Positions 1,727-64,000 of a stretch of DNA of 64,000 bases are shown in pieces. How positions within the stretch are numbered: position 1 is the stretch's first letter; each line of letters opens with the position of its first letter. The stretch is from Azolla caroliniana. Its lineage: Eukaryota; Plantae; Polypodiophyta. The notes under the pieces were generated by a model, which ran no database searches, was not told where the DNA came from, and was given only the letters and a program-made list of their open reading frames with translations. Location: assembly GCA_043228905.1 (NCBI GenBank), contig JBHGNT010000006.1, forward strand, positions 10,354,001-10,418,000, written 5' to 3'. Position numbers and translations under genes: made by a program.

Positions 1727-4700
1727 CAGGACAAAGGTTTCTGTGTTTTTGATGCGATTGTATTAAGATGGCACATATGCAACTAGTTTTAACCAAATGA
1801 CATTTCCTAGAAGAAAACATGTATTATTTTCACAAACTCAATCTTCATATTTTGATTGCTAATTATATACCCCAAACTATGAGCAATTACTTAACATCTT
1901 TGGAAAAGAGGCCCAACAGAAAATACCTGTATTAAGCTCATCGACATGTAATGTGCCAAACGTGGGAGTTAGATGCATGCGTCCTACCACATAAAAGAAA
2001 TAATGTTTGCATGACAATATCTTAATGGTATTGCAATGGATACTCCATGAGTCCTAAACATTGGAAGAAACTTTTATCATTATCAGAAGGAATTTTCTTG
2101 TTTGGAGGTGTTTTTCGTCAGCAAAAAAGAGTGCTTCCTTGTGGAGAAAATGGAAATTTCCTACATTAATCTATGTGTGTATATGTATATGAAAGATAAA
2201 CCAGATACATAGGTGGCCTACCACACAGGATTTAAAATGCTTGTGTTTCAAACACCTACTAAAATTTTGAACACCTAAAGTAATTTATCAACAAGCTAAG
2301 TGTAGGGTTCGACTTGATTGTGTTGTTGATAGTGGAGCATTTTATTTTGTGTAGGATTTTCGGAAAACCAAAAGACATGGTGGGGCAAAGAAGGCCTCCC
2401 CAGGTAAAAATGAAAAAAAGTGAAGCATTCAACCAACTATTTGTTGTGAGGTGGAATACTACTAATCATCTATCTTACTTTAAAGAAATGAGATGTTACA
2501 TTAAGAGTGCACAACTCTCGCATTGCATTAGTGTATTATTCATAAGGATTTCTTATTTCAAGATGCAAACTCGCAACCCTTTCACAAAAGACTATACCAT
2601 GTTTTGATTTACCAAGTCAATTAGTTGAATTAAGAAAAGACCAAACAAAAACTCCAAGATTGCAACAATGTTATTCATCTAAGCTAAAGCAAAATATTAC
2701 ATGAGTAATTAAAAGGCATTGCATGCACATTTATCATATTGTAAACATGATGCTACCTCTACTAGGTCATGATTACATGGAGCAAACACTTGCTAGGAAT
2801 TTTGTCAAGTTTATGGGAAAGATGAATATTCATCATAAACAACTATCCTAATTCTCATCAAGTTATTATTGTTGGACTCATTGGCAAGTAAAATGCATGG
2901 AGTGCTTGTCCCTAGAATCAACAAACACTATCTTTTTACAATATGAACCCACTATTCACCTAATTGTTCAGACAAGTTTGATGCGTCAATGAATAAGAGC
3001 TTGACTATGTGAATAAAGGGTGCCATATACTTTTTGTATATTCGAAAGAAAACTCACTTTATTTAGATAAATCTATTACCCTAGACAAACACAAACGTCC
3101 AGGTTCTCCTTTAAACTATAATTATTCAAAGGTAGGAAGCCTTCCCCCTTTGCAAATTAGGTGATAATTACTTTGTTCTTTGTTATGTATAGGGTTCATC
3201 CACAATACGGAAAATGGATTCCCTTTGCAAATATAGCCATAATTTCCTATATCTTCATAAAGAAACAATTGTATGCTAGCAAAATATGAGATATGTTAGG
3301 GTCACTATGTTAACCAACCATGTGAGCTAGAATAATGAGCACCTAGATGTCCGATTACTTCCTATAAAACCATGTGAGTTGGAAATTGTTATCTTTAAAA
3401 GGCATTTGATTGCGTGAAATAAAGTTTTGTGCTTCATATCTTGCCAACAAACCTATATATCTTTTCACTAATAATAAAGGAAGTCAATCATACATTTTAC
3501 ACGATTTACAACAAGTAATGTTTTGTGCCTACTTAACTTTTTCTCTAGAATTGTTACATTTTTAGGCAAAACAAGATGAATATGCACACAATGCCATTAG
3601 ATCTTGTAGGTTTTCTTAGTAAACGTGGATTTCCTATTTTCCTTCTTCTATCCACATGATGATTGAATCACTTCATTATTTGTAGATTTCCTTGTCTTCC
3701 TCTACAATGAAATGGTTTCTATCATTTAGTTGTAAATATCTCTCCTACTATCACATATAATGAATGCCTTCTTATGTGCACTATCATTGTTTTTCATGGT
3801 TCGTAATGCAAGAAAATGTAAACGTCATAGTTGCAAAAAACACATTTTAGAAGCAAACTCAATGCGTGCATTATTCCAAACAAAAATTACCAAGAGTATT
3901 TTAATGAACACATAATTGAACCCATTGCAAGTGATTGAAGCACACAACCTTACTACCACAAGACCAAGCTTAAAAAATTCAAGGTTGAGCCTTGAAATTT
4001 GAAGAAGTAGCCTTGTGGTAGATGTAATTATTAAGGCTCTTAATCGAGAAAATTGTGAGCTCTAAGAATGGCGTAATTAAATATGCAATCATGATCATAG
4101 TTGAAGAGAAATGTTAGGTTCATTTAAATATATAAACAAAGAATAAGTTATAATATAATGTGATACAATTAGTGAATCTCAACAATAAACTCATGTGATT
4201 ATGTCATTTAGTGAGTGATTACAAGATCAAGTGATAACCAATGCGTAAGAAGATGATTAATGAACTAAGAAAGATGTTAAAATAAAATAAGGAGGGTGTG
4301 CATGCGTGAAAAGAAGATGGTAGATATAACGTTAGAATGGGCTTGTAAACCTTGACAATTCATATTCTAATCCTCAAAAATTAGAGACTCAAGATGGAAG
4401 TTATCATAAGCACAAATAGGAAGATGATTTTTCCCTCCAACCCTTGTCTTTCCTACTGCAAGACGTTATTGATCCCACTCAAATTTCACAGTCACTCATG
4501 AATTATTGCAACATACTTTTTAAGCATTGACCCACCAATCAAGGGTGGACTTAAAGGGGAAGTAATTGATCATAAAAAAACATCCAATAATAGTCTTTTG
4601 CATGAAAGTCACCTGAATAGGTAGCTATAACTTTGCAATAGGTTCACTATACTAACAAAGCCATTGCCACCTCAACACGACAACCTTAAGCATGAATACA

Positions 4701-5919: not shown

Positions 5920-6329
5920 TGTCGTGAAGATTTTCGGCAATGGTGTGAAAATCGCATAGAACGTACAAAATCAAGTGTGGTTCTTCACACGAGACATGAA
6001 ACAATAATAGAGAAGATACTATTTTAGATTAGCTTAATATCTTGGTATGGGAAGATGGAGGTCTTCAAGAGCTTTCGAATGCTTTTCACTACATAAGAAA
6101 CGGACATCTAAGTGTCAAGTTATGTGGGTATAAAGTTTTGCAAAAGAAAAAAAGAGAAAAAAAAAACTGTGAAATATCCCACATAGATAGGAAAAGTTTA
6201 GGCTCCACCTATATAAGCAGATTGAGATCCATCATATTTCATCTATGTCTTAAGAGCACATAAGAAATAGTTGGACTTGAGCCACTTTTGTCTACTACGA
6301 CAATGGGACATATGTGGCTAATCGGTGAA

Positions 6330-6650
6330 GAAACTCAAACCGGCCGAAGACAAAACTGGACACTGGATGGAGCTGGCAACCGGCGACCGGCAATGGAACC
6401 GGTGATTGGTGAACGGCAACCGACGGCGGAACCAATGATCGGTGACTCGGCATCCGGCAAGGTTTTGGCCAACCAAAACCGGCGGCAACTAGTGGCGGAA
6501 CCGATTACCAGTGAGCGGCATCCGACGACGGATCCGGTGACAGAACCGATGACCCGACATCTGACGACCTCGGGATACGGACCAAACCGGCTCGGGATGT
6601 GGACCGAACCGGGCCAAACCGAACGAATGCAAATCGGTCGCAACGGTTGA
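6330..6650. repeat. GC-rich degenerate ~36-bp minisatellite inside S1
   Basis: Recurring units like cggcaaccgacggcggaaccgatgatcggtga. Confidence 0.65.
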
Positions 6651-6965
6651 TCGCGGTGGATGGTGTTTTAAAGATATTTGGTTCAAAAGCCTAATAGTAT
6701 TTTGTGCATAAAACAAAAAGATGTAAGCAAGACTCAAACTTAACACCTGCAAGATAGGAAGCAATAAACTTACCATTAAGCCAAACCATTTCTTTAGGGA
6801 TTATATTTTTATCATTGTAGCTTTACATGTAAATTCTCATATGTGAGAGCTTAGACGATGACATGGCAAGCATGCATTGCGTGCATGTCTTACACCCTCA
6901 CATGCACCATATGCATGGGGCATCTATAAAAGAGTGGAGGAATCAAGAAAAATGGGGGTATATTT

Positions 6966-7691
6966 TGTTAGGAAACAGGTCCTTCCGGATGGGAAGTGAG
7001 AAGAACAGTACTAATGAGCAAACTCGGCCGAGGCCGAAACCGGATGAGGAATACCTAGCCACGGAAGACCCGGTGAGAACCGGATGACGAGTACCCGGCT
7101 ACGGAGAGCCGGATGGTGCAGACCCGGTGAGAACTGGATGAGGAGTACCCAGAAACGGAAGACCTGGTGAGAACCAGATGACGAGTACCCGGCAAGTGCC
7201 GGATGATGCAGGCCCGGTGAGGAGTGCTCACCGGATGAAGGGACATATCCGTAAATATGTTTTCTGAGAGTCCATCGGGGTTATATTTGTAAATAGCCAA
7301 AAAGTCATATTAGTATAAATATGACTTAGGGAAAACCTCAGAGGGTTGTCATTCTTGTTGGCGCAAGATTAGAGCGTGCAACTGTGTACAGAGAGAGTGA
7401 GAGAGAGGAAGAGGTCGTTGCCTCTGATTGTAACCGCCGCCTGTGGCGAAGATAGCAAGCTCGAGGTCGTGGCCTTGGTGCTTTCTTATTGTACATTCTG
7501 ACATAGTGATAGTTCGCGGTCTGTGGGCTGCCGTGGTTTTTCCCAAGTTTGGGTTTTCCACGTAAACATTCTGTGTACTCTTCTCTCTATCGTGTTGTGT
7601 TTCATTCCCTATTTTTCTTTTCTTTTCTGTGTTTTATTCTAGGCTCGGTTGTGGCCGAGCGTTGAGTAAACGGAGCGTGTTGTTCCTGTCA
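6966..7691 (+). repeat. Copia E 5' LTR (726 bp)
   Basis: TG...CA termini, matches 11781 onward, has internal ccggatgaggagtaccc repeats and TATAAAT near 7314. Confidence 0.9.
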
Positions 7692-50386: not shown

Positions 50387-53263
50387 TGTCGTGCCTTTCG
50401 GCTCCGGATCGTTTGCGTGAGTCGAGTGGTTCCCACCCGACTCACGCAAACGATCCGGAGCCGAAAGGCACGACATAGTTGGTGAACCCGACGTGAAGAG
50501 GGGTGGTAAGGAGATGGAGAATCAACAAGAGGCAATGAGCATAACGATGATGATGATGTTCGAGCGGATGCTACAAGAACAACGAGTGATGTCGGAGATC
50601 ACGGGGCAGTAAAGCGGCTCGTACAACGAAACGGACAATTCAACGGAAACGATGTGTCATGCTATCTACGTGACTACAAGGCGGAGATGATACGATGTGG
50701 GATACCGGAAGGATTGCAAGTGACATCCTTCAATCGGGTGGCCACGGATGAGCTACAAGAGAGAATCTACAAGATACGGCAACAAAATTCGACATGGGGG
50801 TCATTCGAAGAAGCTTTACGAGAGGCATATGATTACAAGAGATCGAAGGGAAAAGATCGGCGAGAATTCGACGAATGGGTGGCGTTGGAGAAGACTCACC
50901 GAAGTGCAACGCAAGCGTTCCTAGAGTTCGAGCATCGTTTTGCTTGATTCTCGGAGCGGGAACGAAGATTGGTGGGAGAAGATAAAGTCTTAATGTTCGT
51001 AAGATCGATCGATCGGAAAGAAAGGATGGACATTGGGATCGAACTCGAAGATGATGACGGTGCGAACGGCCTTACCGAGGATTGGGCCAAAGTCGAAAGG
51101 GTATGCCGGAGACATGATGAGAGGAAGATGAGAATCTTGTCAACGACATGGCCCATGAAGGATGGTCGATTGAGGAAAAACGATGAAGCCAATATGAAGG
51201 CCGAAATACAACATGATGGTACCACGGGAGAAAGAGTGGAACAAGACACCCACTCGTCTTGTGAAAGAACGATGGCGAAGGATAAGGCCGATAATTCAAG
51301 TGTAGAAGGAAATTTCGGGATACAAGTGCCCGAGACATCGGGTCAAAAAGGGGTAAGCATAATAGATGTTTGCATAATTGATGCAGATAAAGAGTGTGAA
51401 GCGGATGTGATTAAGGAGGTAGCCACAAAAGACGAAATCGAATCGGAGGTGGCTATGGACGAATCAATGGCGGATTGCCATATCGAGACTTCCCCACCAC
51501 TGATTCCAGAGACTCCGGCGGTTGCGATCGAAAGGCAACGTGAGACCGAAGAGACGGAAGGTGGCGGAGAGAAAACGAATGTCGAAGCCGACGAATACGA
51601 TGAAGAGATAGCCGAGAAGAATGCTAAGGGTGAAACTACGAAAGAAGGTAATACCGAGGATTCATGCCAACAATATCTAGAGACTTCGGCGGTTGTGTCC
51701 GAGAACCAACGTGAGACCGGAGAGACGGGAGATGGCGGCGAGGAAGGTAAAGTCGGAAGTCGGTTCGGATGGAAAATGATCCATCCGAAATTCCAATCTA
51801 AAAGAAAGTGCGACAATGCGGAGGTCGGGTCTACGACGGGAGAAGCGCGTAATACAGAGCACGCTCTACGGCGAATAAAGAAACGCGTGTTATGGCGAAT
51901 AAAGAAGCACGCGCTACGGCGAGAAAAGAAGCATGCATTACAACCACACGAGGACCGAACAATGAGCACATATCGGAGGACCTACGTGGCGAACAACGGA
52001 AAGAAGTGCCGAAAGTCGAACCGGACAAGGCAGGTGAAAACGAAGAAAAGAAAGCAAATCCGGACGAAAAGAAAAGAAAAGAAACCGACCCGAAAGAGCA
52101 CTGAATCGGTAAAAACCGATCAACCGAGTCCGGATCGACCGAATACAAATCGGAAAGGAAGCCGAACTAAACGAAAGACGATCCGACGAGACCGAATCGG
52201 AAGTAAGCTAATCCGACTAAACCGAAAATCCGAAAAGAAGTCGAGATTGATGAAGACAAGAAAGAGGCCAGTAAAAGACACTACCACGAATGACAAGGGC
52301 CAAGAATATGACGAGAGAGAACAAAGAATATGGTGGATCGGATGGCGACAATGGTTCGGGTGGAAAGAATGGATGTGCTCCAAATGGAGAGACAAAGTCA
52401 ACATAACAAGAGAAGTCGAGGGTACTTCGAGCCGGCAACGAAACCAATCGGGTAGAGACCGGACGGAGGAGACTAACAAACACCAACAACTTCGGCACAT
52501 ACCGGAGGATGTGCGGGTAACTGTGTCGTGCCTTTCGGCTCCGGATCGTTTGCGTGAGTCGGGTGGGAACCACTGGGGTTTTGGACTAGGAGGAGGAAGA
52601 ATTTGAGGCTAATCTAATTATGAATATCAATAGATTATAAGAAAGAGATATAGAAATTTCGTGAATCCCACGAGTGTATTGTATTCGATTAATCAATATT
52701 TAGATAAGAATATGTATTTAGATTGAAAGAAAGATATAAGAAACTTGTGAATCCCACAAGTATAGATTATATTATTTTCGTGAATCCCACGATTATATTA
52801 ATTGGTTGGTGTTTTCGGAAATATATCCAATTTCCCAAATATTTTTCACACACAATTACATTGTGCTTCCCATCCTTATGTAGTGATGAGGAAGTCTTAG
52901 TAATCCATGCTTTTTCTCTAACTATAGACCCCATGCTTTTCCTATAGATAGACTATATGCTTTATCTAAAGTGATCATGCTTTTTCTAACTTGTGCGTTT
53001 TTTATCATGCACGCTAGATGTGTATGTGTAGCTTTTTCTTTTGTTATGCGTTTTTCTAATGTTTATCCTAGCGTGAATTTACCTTTCTATGTGGGACATC
53101 TATGCTTTAACACTAATGAAATGCTAGTGTAATGGTAAGACATTACATTATTAACATGGAGGTGCAAGGTTCGAATCTTGCCCTATGCATGTTCCATTTA
53201 TTTTGCTATTTTCTTCTATTTCTTCATTTTTTATTGAATCTAATACTATATACGTTAAGAACA
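50387..53263. mobile_element. G: gag-only LTR element with inverted internal domain
   Basis: TSD GCGT (50383-50386 / 53264-53267). 38 bp of LTR terminus, then inverted U5 end, PBS-Trp and gag on plus, then aactg and a full LTR 52524-53263 in the opposite orientation. Confidence 0.85.
50515..52518 (+). pseudogene. G Gag plus acidic/basic tail, homologous to the H ORF
   Basis: MENQQEAM.., YLRDYKAEMIRCG, FVRSIDRKERMDIG, WWIGWRQWFGWKEW. Frameshift near 50605 and TGA at 50945. Confidence 0.85.
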
Positions 53264-58945: not shown

Positions 58946-60365
58946 TGAATGATAATTTCTAGCAAAGAAATAGGATAAGCCAGACAAATAGTCATAACAT
59001 TGTGTCATGATGTGAATATATCATGGGCAAACATTAATTGATATCATGATCTCACATCAATACCCCTCTAGACGTATGAGATGAGGTTCAAGATTAGGTT
59101 ACTATGGTAACACAAAGGTGTTTTAAAAACCATGGGGGTGACAAATGAAAGTTTTTCCCTGATCTCTATATCGATTTTTTCATGGCGGCTACCCGAGGCT
59201 CAACCATATATGTTTGCGTTATGAATAGTTTAAACACGAAAAGATGTTAACAATAAACTATGTCTCTGTGCCCACGCATGTCGTCTTGGCTCTTTAAGTC
59301 CTATTACGAGGACCTTGAAGTGCACTAGTACGTTACCCAACCTCAAGGCTCATCAATACAACGACATACCCCAAAGTGCAACCTAATGGTCAAACCACAC
59401 GAGCCCTCTTTTCGTAGTAGGCCCACGTGGCCCATCACATGGTTACATCATTACGAATGCCTTTCGTAATGATGATCTCATGGTGGCATCGTATCCATGT
59501 AATGAGGGTGGGATGTTGGATATATGTGTCAAAGGAGTGACCTCACATGAAGTGGGTCAAGCCCTACGTTGTCAACATCATTGTGACTATGATCATTTCA
59601 TTACGTAACGCAATCGAAGTGACCAACGGGGATGTAAACAAAAAAAATTGTTGAAAAAGGGATGGTGACTGTCATTCTCACAAAAATGTGAGGACGGACA
59701 CCAAGATCCTTTCCCCGAAAAGGATAATGTTCAACATACACAATCACGTAATATAAACTAATATATATTTATGTTTATCACATGTATACGATTAAATACG
59801 TATACACGTTGTCGTGCCTTTCGGCTCCGGATCGTTTGCGTGAGTCGGGTGGGAACCACTGAGGTTTTGGACTAGGAGAAAGAAAAATACAAATAAGGCT
59901 AGTAAAGAATACGTATAAAGAGTTATAAGATAAGAATCTCGTGAATCCCACGAGTTTAGTATATTTAGTCAATATTTAGGTAGTAAGAGAGAATTATTTT
60001 TAGCAAATTCGTGAATCCCACGAATATTTTAGATTGATTGATCATTATAGAAAAATAATCAACAAAAACTACAATGTGCTCCCCATCCTTATATAGTGAT
60101 GGGAGAGACTAAGCATAGCTACATGCTTTTTCTCATATGTTCATGCACACTAAATGTGCATGTGATGCTTTTCTAATCCTTGCTTTTATTTGCTAAATAT
60201 AGTGCTCATGCATGCTAGATGTGCATGAGTCACTTTTTAGTTGCTTGCGTTTTTCTATAAAATATTCACGCACTCTAAAAATGCATGATTTACCTTTTAA
60301 TAAAGGTAGGCGCAAATAAAGCAGTTATAGTTATTAAATCTATTTATAGAACACTAAAGATAAGG

Positions 60366-60419
60366 TAGCATAATGGTAAAGTTGAGGTTTGGCTACGTGG
60401 AGGTACAGGGTTCGAATCC
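60366..60419 (+). promoter_or_regulatory. Pol III type-2 A box and B box inside the H LTR (also 63106-63159; in G at 53125-53178)
   Basis: TAGCATAATGG fits TRGCNNARYGG and GGTTCGAATCC fits GGTTCGANNCC, 43 nt start to start. T4 at 60455-60458. Confidence 0.65.
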
Positions 60420-60483
60420 TGCCCTATGCACGTGATAAATATCTTGATATATTATTTTATTTATTTATATGTAATTAAATCGG

Positions 60484-62511
60484 TTATATTATTTTTACTT
60501 TTTCACGTAGTGTACGAAATACACTACGACACTCGCCCCCTCCGAACCCGCACATCCTCCGGTATGTGCCGAAGTTGCCGATGCTCGTTGTCTCCCCTTC
60601 ATCCTCCGTTTGTCCCGCTATGTCAACTTTGTCTCTCCATTTTGAGTAGACCCATTCTTTCCACCCGAACCATTGCCGCCATCCGATCCACCATATTCTT
60701 TGTTCTCTCTCGTCATATTCTTGGCCCTTGTCATTCGTGGTAGTGTCTTTTACTGGCCTCTTTCTTGTCTTCATCAACCTTGACTTTTTTCCGGATCGCT
60801 CTCGTCCGATCGACTTTCGGTTTGATCGGCTTCCGATCGGATTCGTATTCGGCCGAATCGGAATCGGTTGTTCGGTTTCGATTGAGTCGGTCTCCTTTTC
60901 AGTTGGCTTTCTTTTCCTCGTTTTCACCAACCTCGACCGGTCCAACCTCCGGTTGAGTCGGATTAGCTTCTTTCCGGATCCGTTTCGTCCGATCGGCTTT
61001 CGGCTAGGTCGGCTTCCATCCATATTCGCGTTCGGCCAAGTCAGACTCAGTCGATCGGTTTTGACCGAGTTGAGCCCTTTTCGGATCGGCTTTCTTTCGG
61101 GTCGTCTTTCGGCCGAATCCTCATTCGCCCGGTTCGGCTTTCGTTTGTGTCGTCTTTCGGTCGAATCCTCTTTCACCCGGTTCGGCTTTCTTTCGGTTCG
61201 TCTTTCGGCCGAATTCTCTTTTACCCGGTTCGGCTTTCTTTCGGATCGGAATCCCGTCCGGATCACCTTCCATCCTAACTGGCTTCCGACTTTACCTTTC
61301 TTGCCGCCACCTCCCGTCTCTCCGGTCTCACGTTGCTTCTCAGACACAACCGCCGAAGTCTCTAGGATTAGTGGGTAGGAATCCTTGGTATTATCATCCT
61401 CCGTTGTTTCACCCATAGCCATATTCTCGACTATCTCTCCGTCATACGCATCAGCTTCAACCTTTGATTTCTCTCCGCCACCTTCCGTCTCTTCGGTCTC
61501 ACGTTGCCTTTCGAATGCAACCGCCGGAGTCTCTAGAATCAGTGGTGGGGAAGTCTCGATATGGCCATTTGTCGTTAATTCGTCCATAGCCACCTTCGAT
61601 TCGATGTCATTTTTCGTGGCGACCTCCTCAATCAAGTCCTCTTTGCTCTCTTTCACTGCATCAATTATGCTTACCCCTTTTTCACCCGATGTTTCGGACA
61701 CTTGTATTCTGAAATCTTCTTCTACACTTGGGTTATCGGCCTTATCCTTCGTCGTTGTTCTTTCGCAAGACAAGAGGGTAGCTTGTTTTACACCCTCTTC
61801 CGTCGCACCATCATGTTGTATTTCGGCCTTCATATCGGCTCCATCGTTTGTCTTCAATCGACCATCCTTCATCGGCCATGTCGTTGACAAGATTCTCATC
61901 TTCCTCTCATCATGTCTCCGGCATACCCTTTGGACTTCGGCCCAATTTTCGGTAAGACCATTCGTACCTTCATCGTCTTCGAGTTCGATCCCGATGTCCA
62001 TCCTTTCTTTTCGATCGATCGATTTTACGAACATTAGGACTTTATCCTCCCCCACCAACCGTTGTTCCCGCTCCGAGAGTCGAGCAAAACGATTCTCGAA
62101 CTCTAGGAATGCTTGTGTTGCACTTCGGTGGGTCTTCTCCGATGCCACCCATTCGTCGAATTCTCGCCGATCTTTTCCCTTCGATCTCTTGTAATCATAT
62201 GCCTCTCGTAAAGCTTCTTCGAATGACCCCCATGTCGAGTTTTGTTGCCGTATCTTGTGGATTCTCTCTTGTAGCTCATCTGTGGCCACCCGATTGAAGG
62301 ATGTCACTTGCAATCCTTCCGGTATCCCACATCGTATCATCTCCGCCTTGTAGTCACGTAGATAGCGTGACACATCGTTTCCGTTGAATTGTCCGTTTCG
62401 TTGTACGAGCCGCTTTACTGCCCCCGTGATCTCCGACATCACTCGTTGTTCTTGTAGCATCCGCTCGAACATCATCATCATCATGTTCATCGCCTCTTGT
62501 TGATTCTCCAT
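60484..62511 (-). CDS. H Gag-like protein with acidic and basic low-complexity tail, 675 aa, intact
   Basis: Open from ATG 62511 through the PPT into the 3' LTR. The N-terminal ~200 aa align by eye to B gag (GQFNGNDVSRYL vs GRFSGKDATKYL; RFARLS in both; LTENWAEVQRVC vs LMTDWAAVKRVY). Confidence 0.85.
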   Translation of the reverse strand: MENQQEAMNMMMMMFERMLQEQRVMSEITGAVKRLVQRNGQFNGNDVSRYLRDYKAEMIRCGIPEGLQVTSFNRVATDELQERIHKIRQQNSTWGSFEEALREAYDYKRSKGKDRREFDEWVASEKTHRSATQAFLEFENRFARLSEREQRLVGEDKVLMFVKSIDRKERMDIGIELEDDEGTNGLTENWAEVQRVCRRHDERKMRILSTTWPMKDGRLKTNDGADMKAEIQHDGATEEGVKQATLLSCERTTTKDKADNPSVEEDFRIQVSETSGEKGVSIIDAVKESKEDLIEEVATKNDIESKVAMDELTTNGHIETSPPLILETPAVAFERQRETEETEGGGEKSKVEADAYDGEIVENMAMGETTEDDNTKDSYPLILETSAVVSEKQRETGETGGGGKKGKVGSQLGWKVIRTGFRSERKPNRVKENSAERRTERKPNRVKEDSTERRHKRKPNRANEDSAERRPERKPIRKGLNSVKTDRLSLTWPNANMDGSRPSRKPIGRNGSGKKLIRLNRRLDRSRLVKTRKRKPTEKETDSIETEQPIPIRPNTNPIGSRSNRKSIGRERSGKKSRLMKTRKRPVKDTTTNDKGQEYDEREQRIWWIGWRQWFGWKEWVYSKWRDKVDIAGQTEDEGETTSIGNFGTYRRMCGFGGGECRSVFRTLREKVKII

Positions 62512-62527: not shown

Positions 62528-62545
62528 TTCACGTCGGGTTCACCA
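62528..62545 (-). promoter_or_regulatory. PBS (tRNA-Trp) of H
   Basis: TGGTGAACCCGACGTGAA, identical to the PBS of B and of G (50480-50497). Confidence 0.9.
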
Positions 62546-64000
62546 ACTGTGTCGTGCCTTTCGGCTCCAGATCGTTTGCGTGAGTCGGGTGGGAACCACT
62601 GAGGTTTTGGACTAGGAGAAAGAAAAATACAAATAAGGCTAGTAAAGAATACGTATAAAGAGTTATAAGATAAGAATCTCGTGAATCCCACGAGTTTAGT
62701 ATATTTAGTCAATATTTAGGTAGTAAGAGAGAATTATTTTTAGCAAATTCGTGAATCCCACGAATATTTTAGATTGATTGATCATTATAGAAAAATAATC
62801 AACAAAAACTACAATGTGCTCCCCATCCTTATATAGTGATGGGAGAGACTAAGCATAGCTACATGCTTTTTCTCATATGTTCATGCACACTAAATGTGCA
62901 TGTGATGCTTTTCTAATCCTTGCTTTTATTTGCTAAATATAGTGCTCATGCATGCTAGATGTGCATGAGTCACTTTTTAGTTGCTTGCGTTTTTCTATAA
63001 AATATTCACGCACTCTAAAAATGCATGATTTACCTTTTAATAAAGGTAGGCGCAAATAAAGCAGTTATAGTTATTAAATCTATTTATAAAACACTAAAGA
63101 TAAGGTAGCATAATGGTAAAGTTGAGGTTTGGCTACGTGGAGGTACAGGGTTCGAATCTTGCCTTATGCACGTGATAAATATCTTGATATATTATTTTAT
63201 TTATTTATATGTAATTAAATCGGTTATATTATTTTTACTTTTTCACATAGTGTACGAAATACACTACGACAACGTGATTACTTATGCATATATTTAAAAC
63301 AATTGTAACATCATATAAGAACCGAATGATATAAATCCAGATATGTAATCGAGGCGTATAGCCTCTACGCACAGGAAACATCCAAAAATGAGGGTGAATG
63401 TAATACACATTTCAAGTATTGACCTCTTACGTATACGACACCAATCGCATATCCTTTACATAGAAATCAAGGTATTGACCTCATACGCAAATGTAACATA
63501 TGTATGTGAACGTAATACGCAATTGAGACATTAACCTTGTACGCATACAATACAAATCACATATCAAATATATGTGGAATGAGGTATTCACCTCATACAC
63601 ATATGTAAACGTTTTATACAACGAATTAATTACCATGACATCGTATCCATGTAATGAGGGAGGGATGTTGGATATGTGTGTAAAAGGAGCAACCTCACAT
63701 GAAGTGGGTCAAGCCCTACATTGTCAACATCATTGTCGGTATGATCGTTTTGTTACGTAACGAAATCGAAGTGACCAATTGGGGATGTCACTAAAAAAAT
63801 TTGTTGAAAAAGGGATGGTGACTACGCCATTCTCACAAAAATATGAAGATGGCCACTAAGATCCTTTCCCCAAAAAGGACAACGTTCGATATACACAATC
63901 ACGTAATAAAAACTAATATATATTTATGTTTATCATATGTATGCGATTAAATACGTATACACGTGATTACATATGCATATATATGTAAATTGACAATGTG

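Follow-up and report, generated by a model that had tools for sequence, protein, structure and literature searches.

tRNA-type A/B boxes in coding Ty3/gypsy elements of Azolla caroliniana as a putative orientation-independent TFIIIC site

A pair of tRNA-type A and B boxes situated in the U3 of long terminal repeats (LTRs) is widespread beyond the gag-only retrotransposon family in which it was noticed, and occurs in two distant Ty3/gypsy lineages. We read this module as an orientation-independent putative TFIIIC site that would aid the Pol II promoter of the element, and not as a gene for a 100-nt RNA, with a probability of about 50%; the reading is preferred because a function exerted at the DNA level and indifferent to orientation fits all the data. 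The window, i.e. the whole stretch of 64,000 nucleotides that was analysed, corresponds to positions 10354001-10418000 of contig C6 in a 523-Mb assembly, and holds the following features (positions within the window).

60366-60376, plus strand: A box TAGCATAATGG, in the U3 of the 3′ LTR of element H, antisense to the element
60377-60408, plus strand: spacer of 32 nt (class I tRNA geometry), with a conserved variable-loop-like AGGT inside and the anticodon stem absent
60409-60419, plus strand: B box GGTTCGAATCC, whose CpG at 60413-60414 is the LTR's most variable CpG among copies
60455-60458, plus strand: first T4 run, a possible Pol III terminator, varying in position in other families
59810-60531, minus strand: 3′ LTR of element H, 722 bp, TG...CA, with a TATA-like box near 60089-60096 on the minus strand
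60532-60545, minus strand: polypurine tract (PPT), directly before the 3′ LTR of element H
60484-62511, minus strand: single gag-like ORF of 675 aa, no pol, the coding content of element H
62528-62545, minus strand: primer-binding site (PBS), 18/18 complementary to the tRNA-Trp 3′ end
62550-63271, minus strand: 5′ LTR of element H, 722 bp, 5 differences from the 3′ LTR
63106-63159, plus strand: A and B boxes of the element H 5′ LTR, directed out of the element, last B-box letter T
59806-59809 and 63272-63275: 4-bp target-site duplication ACGT, NCGN type, flanking element H
53125-53178, plus strand: A and B boxes in the G-subfamily LTR (start 52524) of a rearranged copy, with a T4 at 53201 and T as the last B-box letter
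6731-6783, minus strand: decayed A/B module in a Phygy-type LTR fragment (5923-6975, minus strand) that is interrupted by a copia-like element

Element H measures 3,462 bp (3.46 kb) and lies on the minus strand with its boxes on the plus strand, which makes the boxes antisense; they fall within U3, 269 nt upstream of the LTR TATA box. The box starts are 43 nt apart, and both boxes show 0 mismatches to the textbook type-2 Pol III promoter consensus. Perfect A+B pairs numbered 3 in the window versus a mean of 0.0 in 20 Markov controls. The original prediction that A box, B box, 43-nt spacing and a T4 run stand antisense in U3, and that the boxes return in the second H LTR and in the G LTR with B boxes ending in T, was borne out at every position.

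The PBS of element H reads as the reverse complement of the 18-nt 3′ end of the genomic tRNA-Trp with CCA appended. Matches to this tRNA-Trp 3′ end were found 63 times genome-wide, with clusters or tandem arrays at C8:17.80-17.82 Mb, C16:4.99-5.11 Mb and C5:10.1 Mb; those checked by ARAGORN were mostly tRNA-Trp genes, and it is tRNA-Trp that primes the very abundant Phygy elements. Gag-only elements such as H presumably come under the TR-GAG label. Because the 4-bp NCGN duplication and the tRNA-Trp PBS match the listing of Phygy (4-bp NCGN duplication and 81% tRNA-Trp PBS in the available part of Neumann et al. 2019, PMC6317226), element H most likely derives from Phygy as a gag-only form. Its autonomous relatives also have the compact gag-pol of Phygy, with L103 and L106 showing the RT-RNaseH-integrase order, no chromodomain and a length in the range of 7.6-10 kb, and element H has no pol; the same available part of PMC6317226 mentions no tRNA-like LTR motif for Phygy, from which element H further differs as a gag-only derivative. 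The nearest named proteins are from Riccia, and the retroelements as a whole indicate a non-seed plant. The gag-like ORF gave no Pfam match above the cut-off, and a search for Gag homologues among longer proteins returned 0 of 248 candidates; the N-terminal 200 aa of Gag are 51% identical to the Gag of the autonomous L113 and 33% to that of L106, and the LTR is 73% identical over 421 nt to autonomous G2-type elements such as L113 and L109. Judging by sequence, G2-type autonomous elements (L113, L109) are likely helpers of element H, and it is most likely from an autonomous partner of the Phygy type that the gag-only family inherited the module along with the LTR. The C-terminal half of the ORF (60484-61300) is lysine/arginine-rich, built of 16/48-nt repeats and extended 48 nt into the 3′ LTR; the insertion site, ACGT, lies in a unit of ~330 bp that is duplicated nearby (59484-59809 versus 63636-63964, 89% identity). 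Gag-only elements also form tandem arrays of 4-6 units with common LTRs at C3:11.23 Mb, C9:7.03 Mb and C18:6.69 Mb.

Between H and G, the A box is identical at 9/11 positions and the B box at 10/11, versus 5/18 for the first 18 nt of the spacer, 11/14 for its last 14 nt and 17/40 for the 40 nt upstream of the A box; the spacing is unchanged, as originally claimed. The G LTR, noted at first as diverged, belongs to a rearranged copy (50388-53260), with its gag part inverted relative to the LTR at 52524. In this copy an LTR-end fold-back hairpin (50388-50473) precedes the PBS, and another locus, L326, has an inverted LTR end resembling it; the likeness of the two suggests that fold-back or inverted LTR ends are a recurrent template-switch product. 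The other intact LTR pairs in the window (four copia-like by PBS/PPT and one Phygy-type) carried no module at ≤2 mismatches.

Genome-wide, the A+B pattern gave 2,936 matches versus 1 for a reversed-pattern control. Among the first 30 matches, 27 had 238-300 nt upstream of the A box in common with relatives, and the rest comprised one with 52 nt in common, one tRNA-Leu gene and one unplaced match; since upstream sequence is common to relatives, the matches are LTRs and not free SINEs. Homology extended ≥150 nt upstream in 252 of the 261 head contexts with relatives (289 were examined), many of these loci having been picked by queries favouring intact contexts. A free SINE with this head, i.e. 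with homology starting at the head, a tail and its own target duplication, was found in none of the sampled loci, and L066, L077, L088 and L115-L117, considered as free SINE copies, are actually LTRs of a chromovirus family. The idea of a captured tRNA/SINE head keeps its tRNA-derived motif, but the sampled loci yielded no SINE from which it could have come.

The hosts of the module include the gag-only H and G, the autonomous family A (L101, L102 and L104-L106), L103 with RT, RNaseH and integrase, and chromodomain-bearing elements; the autonomous carriers measure 7.9 kb and possess a TATA box for Pol II. The module is antisense in H, G, family A and the chromoviruses of this genome. It is thus no peculiarity of the gag-only family, as had been supposed, because autonomous Phygy-type and chromovirus LTRs have it too. 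For sampling independent of the boxes, LTRs were anchored on the PBS (Phygy) or the PPT (chromovirus). The module was present in 4/30 and absent in 26/30 PBS-anchored Phygy 5′ LTRs (30 of 5,057 sampled), and the dominant Phygy families, with LTRs of ~525-1,190 bp, are without it. At 20 further PBS loci, chosen mostly for H-clade resemblance, the module is present in all H-clade or family A LTRs whose U3 is intact, and 3 LTRs are truncated; L326, L330 and L335, H-clade LTRs with 'no head', were set aside as truncated or rearranged before the module place, L333 has no module, and L331 and L332 have a weak match only. In the last two (C1:11.03-11.04 Mb) the tRNA-Trp PBS is not followed by a gag-like ORF, the antisense A box is perfect and the B box weak; they are possibly a non-coding derivative.

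Among PPT-anchored chromovirus LTRs (30 of 174), an antisense B box at ≤1 mismatch was found in 28/30 versus 2/30 on the other strand (p 3e-12, with same-family copies non-independent), at a distance of 6-32 bp from the LTR end, compared with 60-550 nt for the module in Phygy LTRs. Two chromovirus groups have a poor A box. A chromodomain (PF00385) was identified in L158 with E 1e-8, and a chromodomain-like reading precedes the PPT in most of the 30 loci. Chromovirus L108/L109 lacks a tRNA PBS; the 11 nt of its primer site are complementary to a stretch of its own LTR 35 nt past the TATA box, which makes it self-priming (one element checked). The chromodomain before the PPT and this self-priming are shared with Tcn1-type chromoviruses, for which the available part of PMC6317226 makes no mention of an A/B module lying antisense at the outer edge of U3.

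Relatives outside this assembly carried the module in both directions. An integrase alignment led to 80 metagenome loci, of which 48 had ≥600 nt after the integrase; these 48 Phygy-type loci contained 11 antisense and 8 sense modules at ≤2 mismatches, two loci having both, and are not fully independent because most contigs come from one assembly series and some heads are nearly identical to ours. L365 among the metagenome matches is weak and distant. On the integrase tree the antisense state took 6 changes and the sense state 3, a sense clade (L402, L406) being the sister of the antisense G/H-type clade; 32/52 rows are without a module, though some contigs may end before the module place. In L103, L384 and L386 the TATA region stands between two modules, the upstream one antisense and the downstream one sense. 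Where the distance was measured, upstream modules end ~110-270 nt short of the TATA box. In L103 (885-1986), L384 and L386 the modules flanking the TATA region are divergent, with extra decayed or duplicated upstream copies, L384 being one with extra upstream module copies. To the putative TFIIIC site, orientation would not matter. Among chromovirus relatives in IMG/VR, modules were found in 1/11 records; this record, L349, a Tekay-like plant chromovirus, has two tandem sense modules in U3 (3483-3539 and 3652-3704), so the trait may extend to seed-plant chromoviruses.

Across 18 sequence groups, the share of the commonest letter was 0.84 in the B box, 0.58 in the A box (lowered partly by spacer-length shifts) and 0.53 in the spacer, versus 0.49 upstream and 0.48 downstream. 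The variable B-box columns are exactly the R and N positions of the consensus, the variable-loop-like AGGT in the spacer is conserved across groups as well, and the spacer length stays at 32-33 nt. Between the H and family A LTRs (Gag 33% identical) the sole blastn match is 81 nt around the B box. The boxes are thus far more conserved across families than the spacer and flanks, which was the comparison proposed as a check.

Features of an RNA product fared otherwise. At the element H module ARAGORN called 0 tRNA genes, Rfam gave no tRNA match at E≤10, and the RNA 60355-60460 folded no better than its shuffles (z −0.51), in agreement with the expectation that no full cloverleaf forms; the module is not a tRNA gene. 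In 26 non-redundant heads, the acceptor and anticodon stems paired at chance level (0.35 and 0.39), and the D and T arms showed partial pairing with no covariation above column shuffles. The T4 run following the boxes is present in H at 60455, but its position is not conserved, the distance from the A box to the first T4 ranging by family from 54 to >300 nt, and past the B box the families have unrelated sequences. What persists is therefore DNA motifs and not an RNA product, since the boxes are conserved while stems, spacer and terminator position vary.

These observations bear directly on the alternative that the module is a working Pol III unit, whose short RNA (~100 nt in H) or antisense read-through matters, e.g. 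in tuning self-silencing or as a decoy. The complete A and B boxes at canonical spacing, the T4 beginning 35 nt past the B box in H, the AT-rich DNA upstream of the A box and the T4 that immediately follows the B box in chromovirus family S are all what such a unit calls for, and a slid T-arm hairpin in the 26 heads showed weak covariation (p 0.037, uncorrected). The shifting terminator, the unrelated sequence after the B box, the absence of a conserved fold and the orientation flips, sister clades included, speak against it and make the conserved ~100-nt RNA of the original prediction unlikely; we consider a working Pol III unit unlikely as well.

The B box holds a CpG, at which decay to CA still fits GGTTCRA and decay to TG breaks the invariant C. 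Copies were tallied by eye over the first 100 of each search, the first 30 for H being confirmed by script. In H (first 100 of 586) the site was CG in 39, CA in 39 and TG in 22; in family A (first 100 of 697) CG in 76, TG in 17 and CA in 7; and in G (first 100 of 838) CG in 67, TG in 21, CA in 10 and TA in 2. The 61/100 non-CG copies of H compare with 18 and 7 for two neighbouring CpGs, and make the site the most decayed of the 20 LTR CpGs and the top of 24 TCGA sites, the next being 0.43 and 0.33. A TCG context is insufficient for this excess, C after T standing at 0.058 versus 0.031 for C after A in the LTR. As the B-box CpG is the most decayed in the LTR, a methylation shadow at this CpG is ruled out, and the local methylation dip that had been anticipated is contradicted.

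Because both LTRs of a new copy take their U3 from one template, a change common to both LTRs is an inherited one. Aligned H pairs (n=26) were CG/CG in 8, CA/CA in 12, TG/TG in 3 and discordant in 3, with 37 unpaired H copies, partly chosen by state, left out of the rates; nine other U3 CpGs in H pairs gave 4 CA and 4 TG inherited changes over 231 pair-sites. Pairs in the other two groups, formed by distance and strand only, were CG/CG 15, CA/CA 0, TG/TG 0 and discordant 5 in family A, and CG/CG 14, CA/CA 2, TG/TG 1 and discordant 6 in G. Inherited B-box changes were CA:TG 14:4 versus 28:52 in other mutated copies (Fisher p 0.0013), a bias that comes mainly from subfamily H, since without H it is 2:1 versus 13:36 (p 0.2). 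A-box changes common to both LTRs fall only at consensus-tolerant positions. The bias among inherited changes fits selection for a working B box, and it could instead mark a replication-stage mutation hotspot in a hairpin loop. A single origin of the CA variant in H was disfavoured (p-AU 0.02) on a poorly resolved 23-row tree from which the 3 discordant pairs were left out, and CA may accordingly have arisen in H more than once, as far as this weak tree indicates. CpG methylation blocks TFIIIC. Speculatively, the CA variant in H is an escape from CpG methylation.

The fast decay of this CpG in H, the four elements with a box-breaking change in both LTRs and the 26 module-free Phygy LTRs out of 30 sampled are also what would be seen were the module a passenger, an old tRNA/SINE insertion in an ancestral LTR with no current function; SINE insertion is proposed as the source of such LTR sequences in the available part of Kojima (2024, PMC10886601). 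A passenger would hardly explain that boxes and spacing persist between families of 28-33% Gag identity whose flanks are unalignable, and between chromovirus and non-chromovirus lineages, nor that the same place upstream of the TATA box is held in both orientations and inherited changes are biased, and we regard it as distinctly unlikely.

The antisense orientation in U3 is just what pairing with a tRNA needs, and the module might thus be the 3′ half of a bipartite PBS, its antisense U3 RNA annealing to the primer tRNA at the D and T loops and so aiding minus-strand initiation or transfer. The precedents, as far as the available parts of these papers go, are Ty3, whose U3 pairs with the T and D arms of the primer (PMC5371799), and Drosophila Gypsy with its 3′ PBS (PMC1635307), both with a stretch complementary to tRNA close to the 3′ end of their genomic RNA. 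Phygy heads and the tRNA-Trp gene have words of 7-9 nt in common at the same spacing, and family A matches tRNA-Trp at 16/32 spacer nt. Those of Ty3 and Gypsy match their own primer tRNA, unlike the module here, whose B boxes conform to the generic consensus and have two or more mismatches to tRNA-Trp (6-8/10 identical); the longest word common with tRNA-Trp is 4-9 nt, the U3 complementarity is not primer-specific, sense modules cannot pair with the tRNA, and the module also sits in a self-primed chromovirus without a tRNA PBS. A bipartite PBS is therefore very unlikely. An integration signal, either a landing pad for Pol III-targeting elements or a TFIIIC handle carrying cDNA ends to particular chromatin, is highly improbable, for although the chromovirus B box is only 6-32 bp from the cDNA end, the Phygy module is far from it, and in the 9 of the same 261 query-favoured contexts where homology breaks ≤150 nt upstream of the A box the breaks scatter from −9 to 148 nt with no fixed distance.

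tRNA-like boxes in LTRs are already known from TRIMs. Helenus/TRIMp3 are non-coding TRIMs of 311-1263 bp with a tRNA-like sequence and conserved boxes A and B in the LTR, and resemble the present case in these boxes, in being non-functional as tRNA and in having a PBS and a PPT; the hosts here are instead elements with a Pol II TATA box that code for gag (3.5 kb) or are autonomous (7.9 kb) (available part of PMC10886601). In the same part, the tRNA portion is in sense in the Helenus-1_SMo and Helenus-2C_ToGe LTRs, so that Pol III could make the Helenus element RNA, whereas the module here is mostly antisense. Element H, with 3,462 bp, a 675-aa ORF and an antisense promoter, was accordingly rejected as a Helenus/TRIMp3 member, and a sense Pol III promoter for the element RNA, of Helenus or Cassandra type, is ruled out by orientation, length and the Pol II TATA box. 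HIV U3 has a tRNA-like sequence as well. Cassandra TRIMs likewise conserve Pol III promoter boxes in a plant LTR; theirs, by the available parts of PMC10886601 and PMC12786077, are 5S-derived, in sense and non-coding, and drive Cassandra's own transcript. 'Not a few LTRs' in Repbase hold tRNA-like parts, only TRIMs having been analysed (Kojima 2024, PMC10886601, available part). A/B boxes in the LTRs of coding plant Ty3/gypsy elements were not described in the literature searched, though subscription journals, supplements and Repbase annotations may hold a description.

The preferred reading, a putative TFIIIC site, would work as follows. TFIIIC would bind the tRNA-derived A/B module, which sits in U3 some 110-270 nt ahead of the TATA box, and once bound would position a nucleosome or block heterochromatin, so that the Pol II promoter of the element stays open in silenced chromatin; element transcription would rise and box-bearing LTRs would be favoured, with short Pol III transcription as a possible by-product. 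Of the roles put forward in the original prediction, the TFIIIC/insulator type would be the best reading of the sequence evidence. Yeast tDNAs act as chromatin barriers. The mouse B2 SINE is a chromatin boundary, again a case of Pol III-type boxes as mobile boundary elements, with the difference that the boundary there belongs to or affects the host and here would sit in the retrotransposon's own promoter (PMC8136502, available part). Against the TFIIIC reading stand the dispensability of the module, evident from its absence in most sampled Phygy 5′ LTRs and integrase-tree rows, the lack of protection at the B-box CpG, the four elements broken in both LTRs, the origin of the inherited CA bias mainly in subfamily H, and the poor A box of two chromovirus groups. 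TFIIIC moreover tolerates looser A-B spacing than the exact 32-33 nt seen, which likewise counts against it.

More tentatively, and with less than even odds, plant coding Ty3/gypsy elements may have repeatedly built in tRNA boxes as an orientation-independent putative TFIIIC anti-silencing insulator beside or around their Pol II promoter, H swapping a methylatable CpG for a box-compatible, methylation-proof variant; the antisense copy may first have arisen by tRNA read-through in reverse transcription. Pol III boxes in LTRs have so far been described as promoters of tiny non-coding elements (Cassandra, Helenus), whereas here coding and autonomous elements from two distant lineages carry them, so placed and oriented that the element RNA cannot be made from them. 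A built-in test is offered by the genome itself, whose nearly identical LTR copies include B boxes that are intact, changed but box-compatible, or broken. If TFIIIC binds, plant retrotransposons would have a cis-acting route to resist silencing by way of an essential host factor, one not easily altered by the host, and this genome would be strewn with potential chromatin boundaries in the thousands, given the 2,936 consensus matches against a few dozen per tRNA type.
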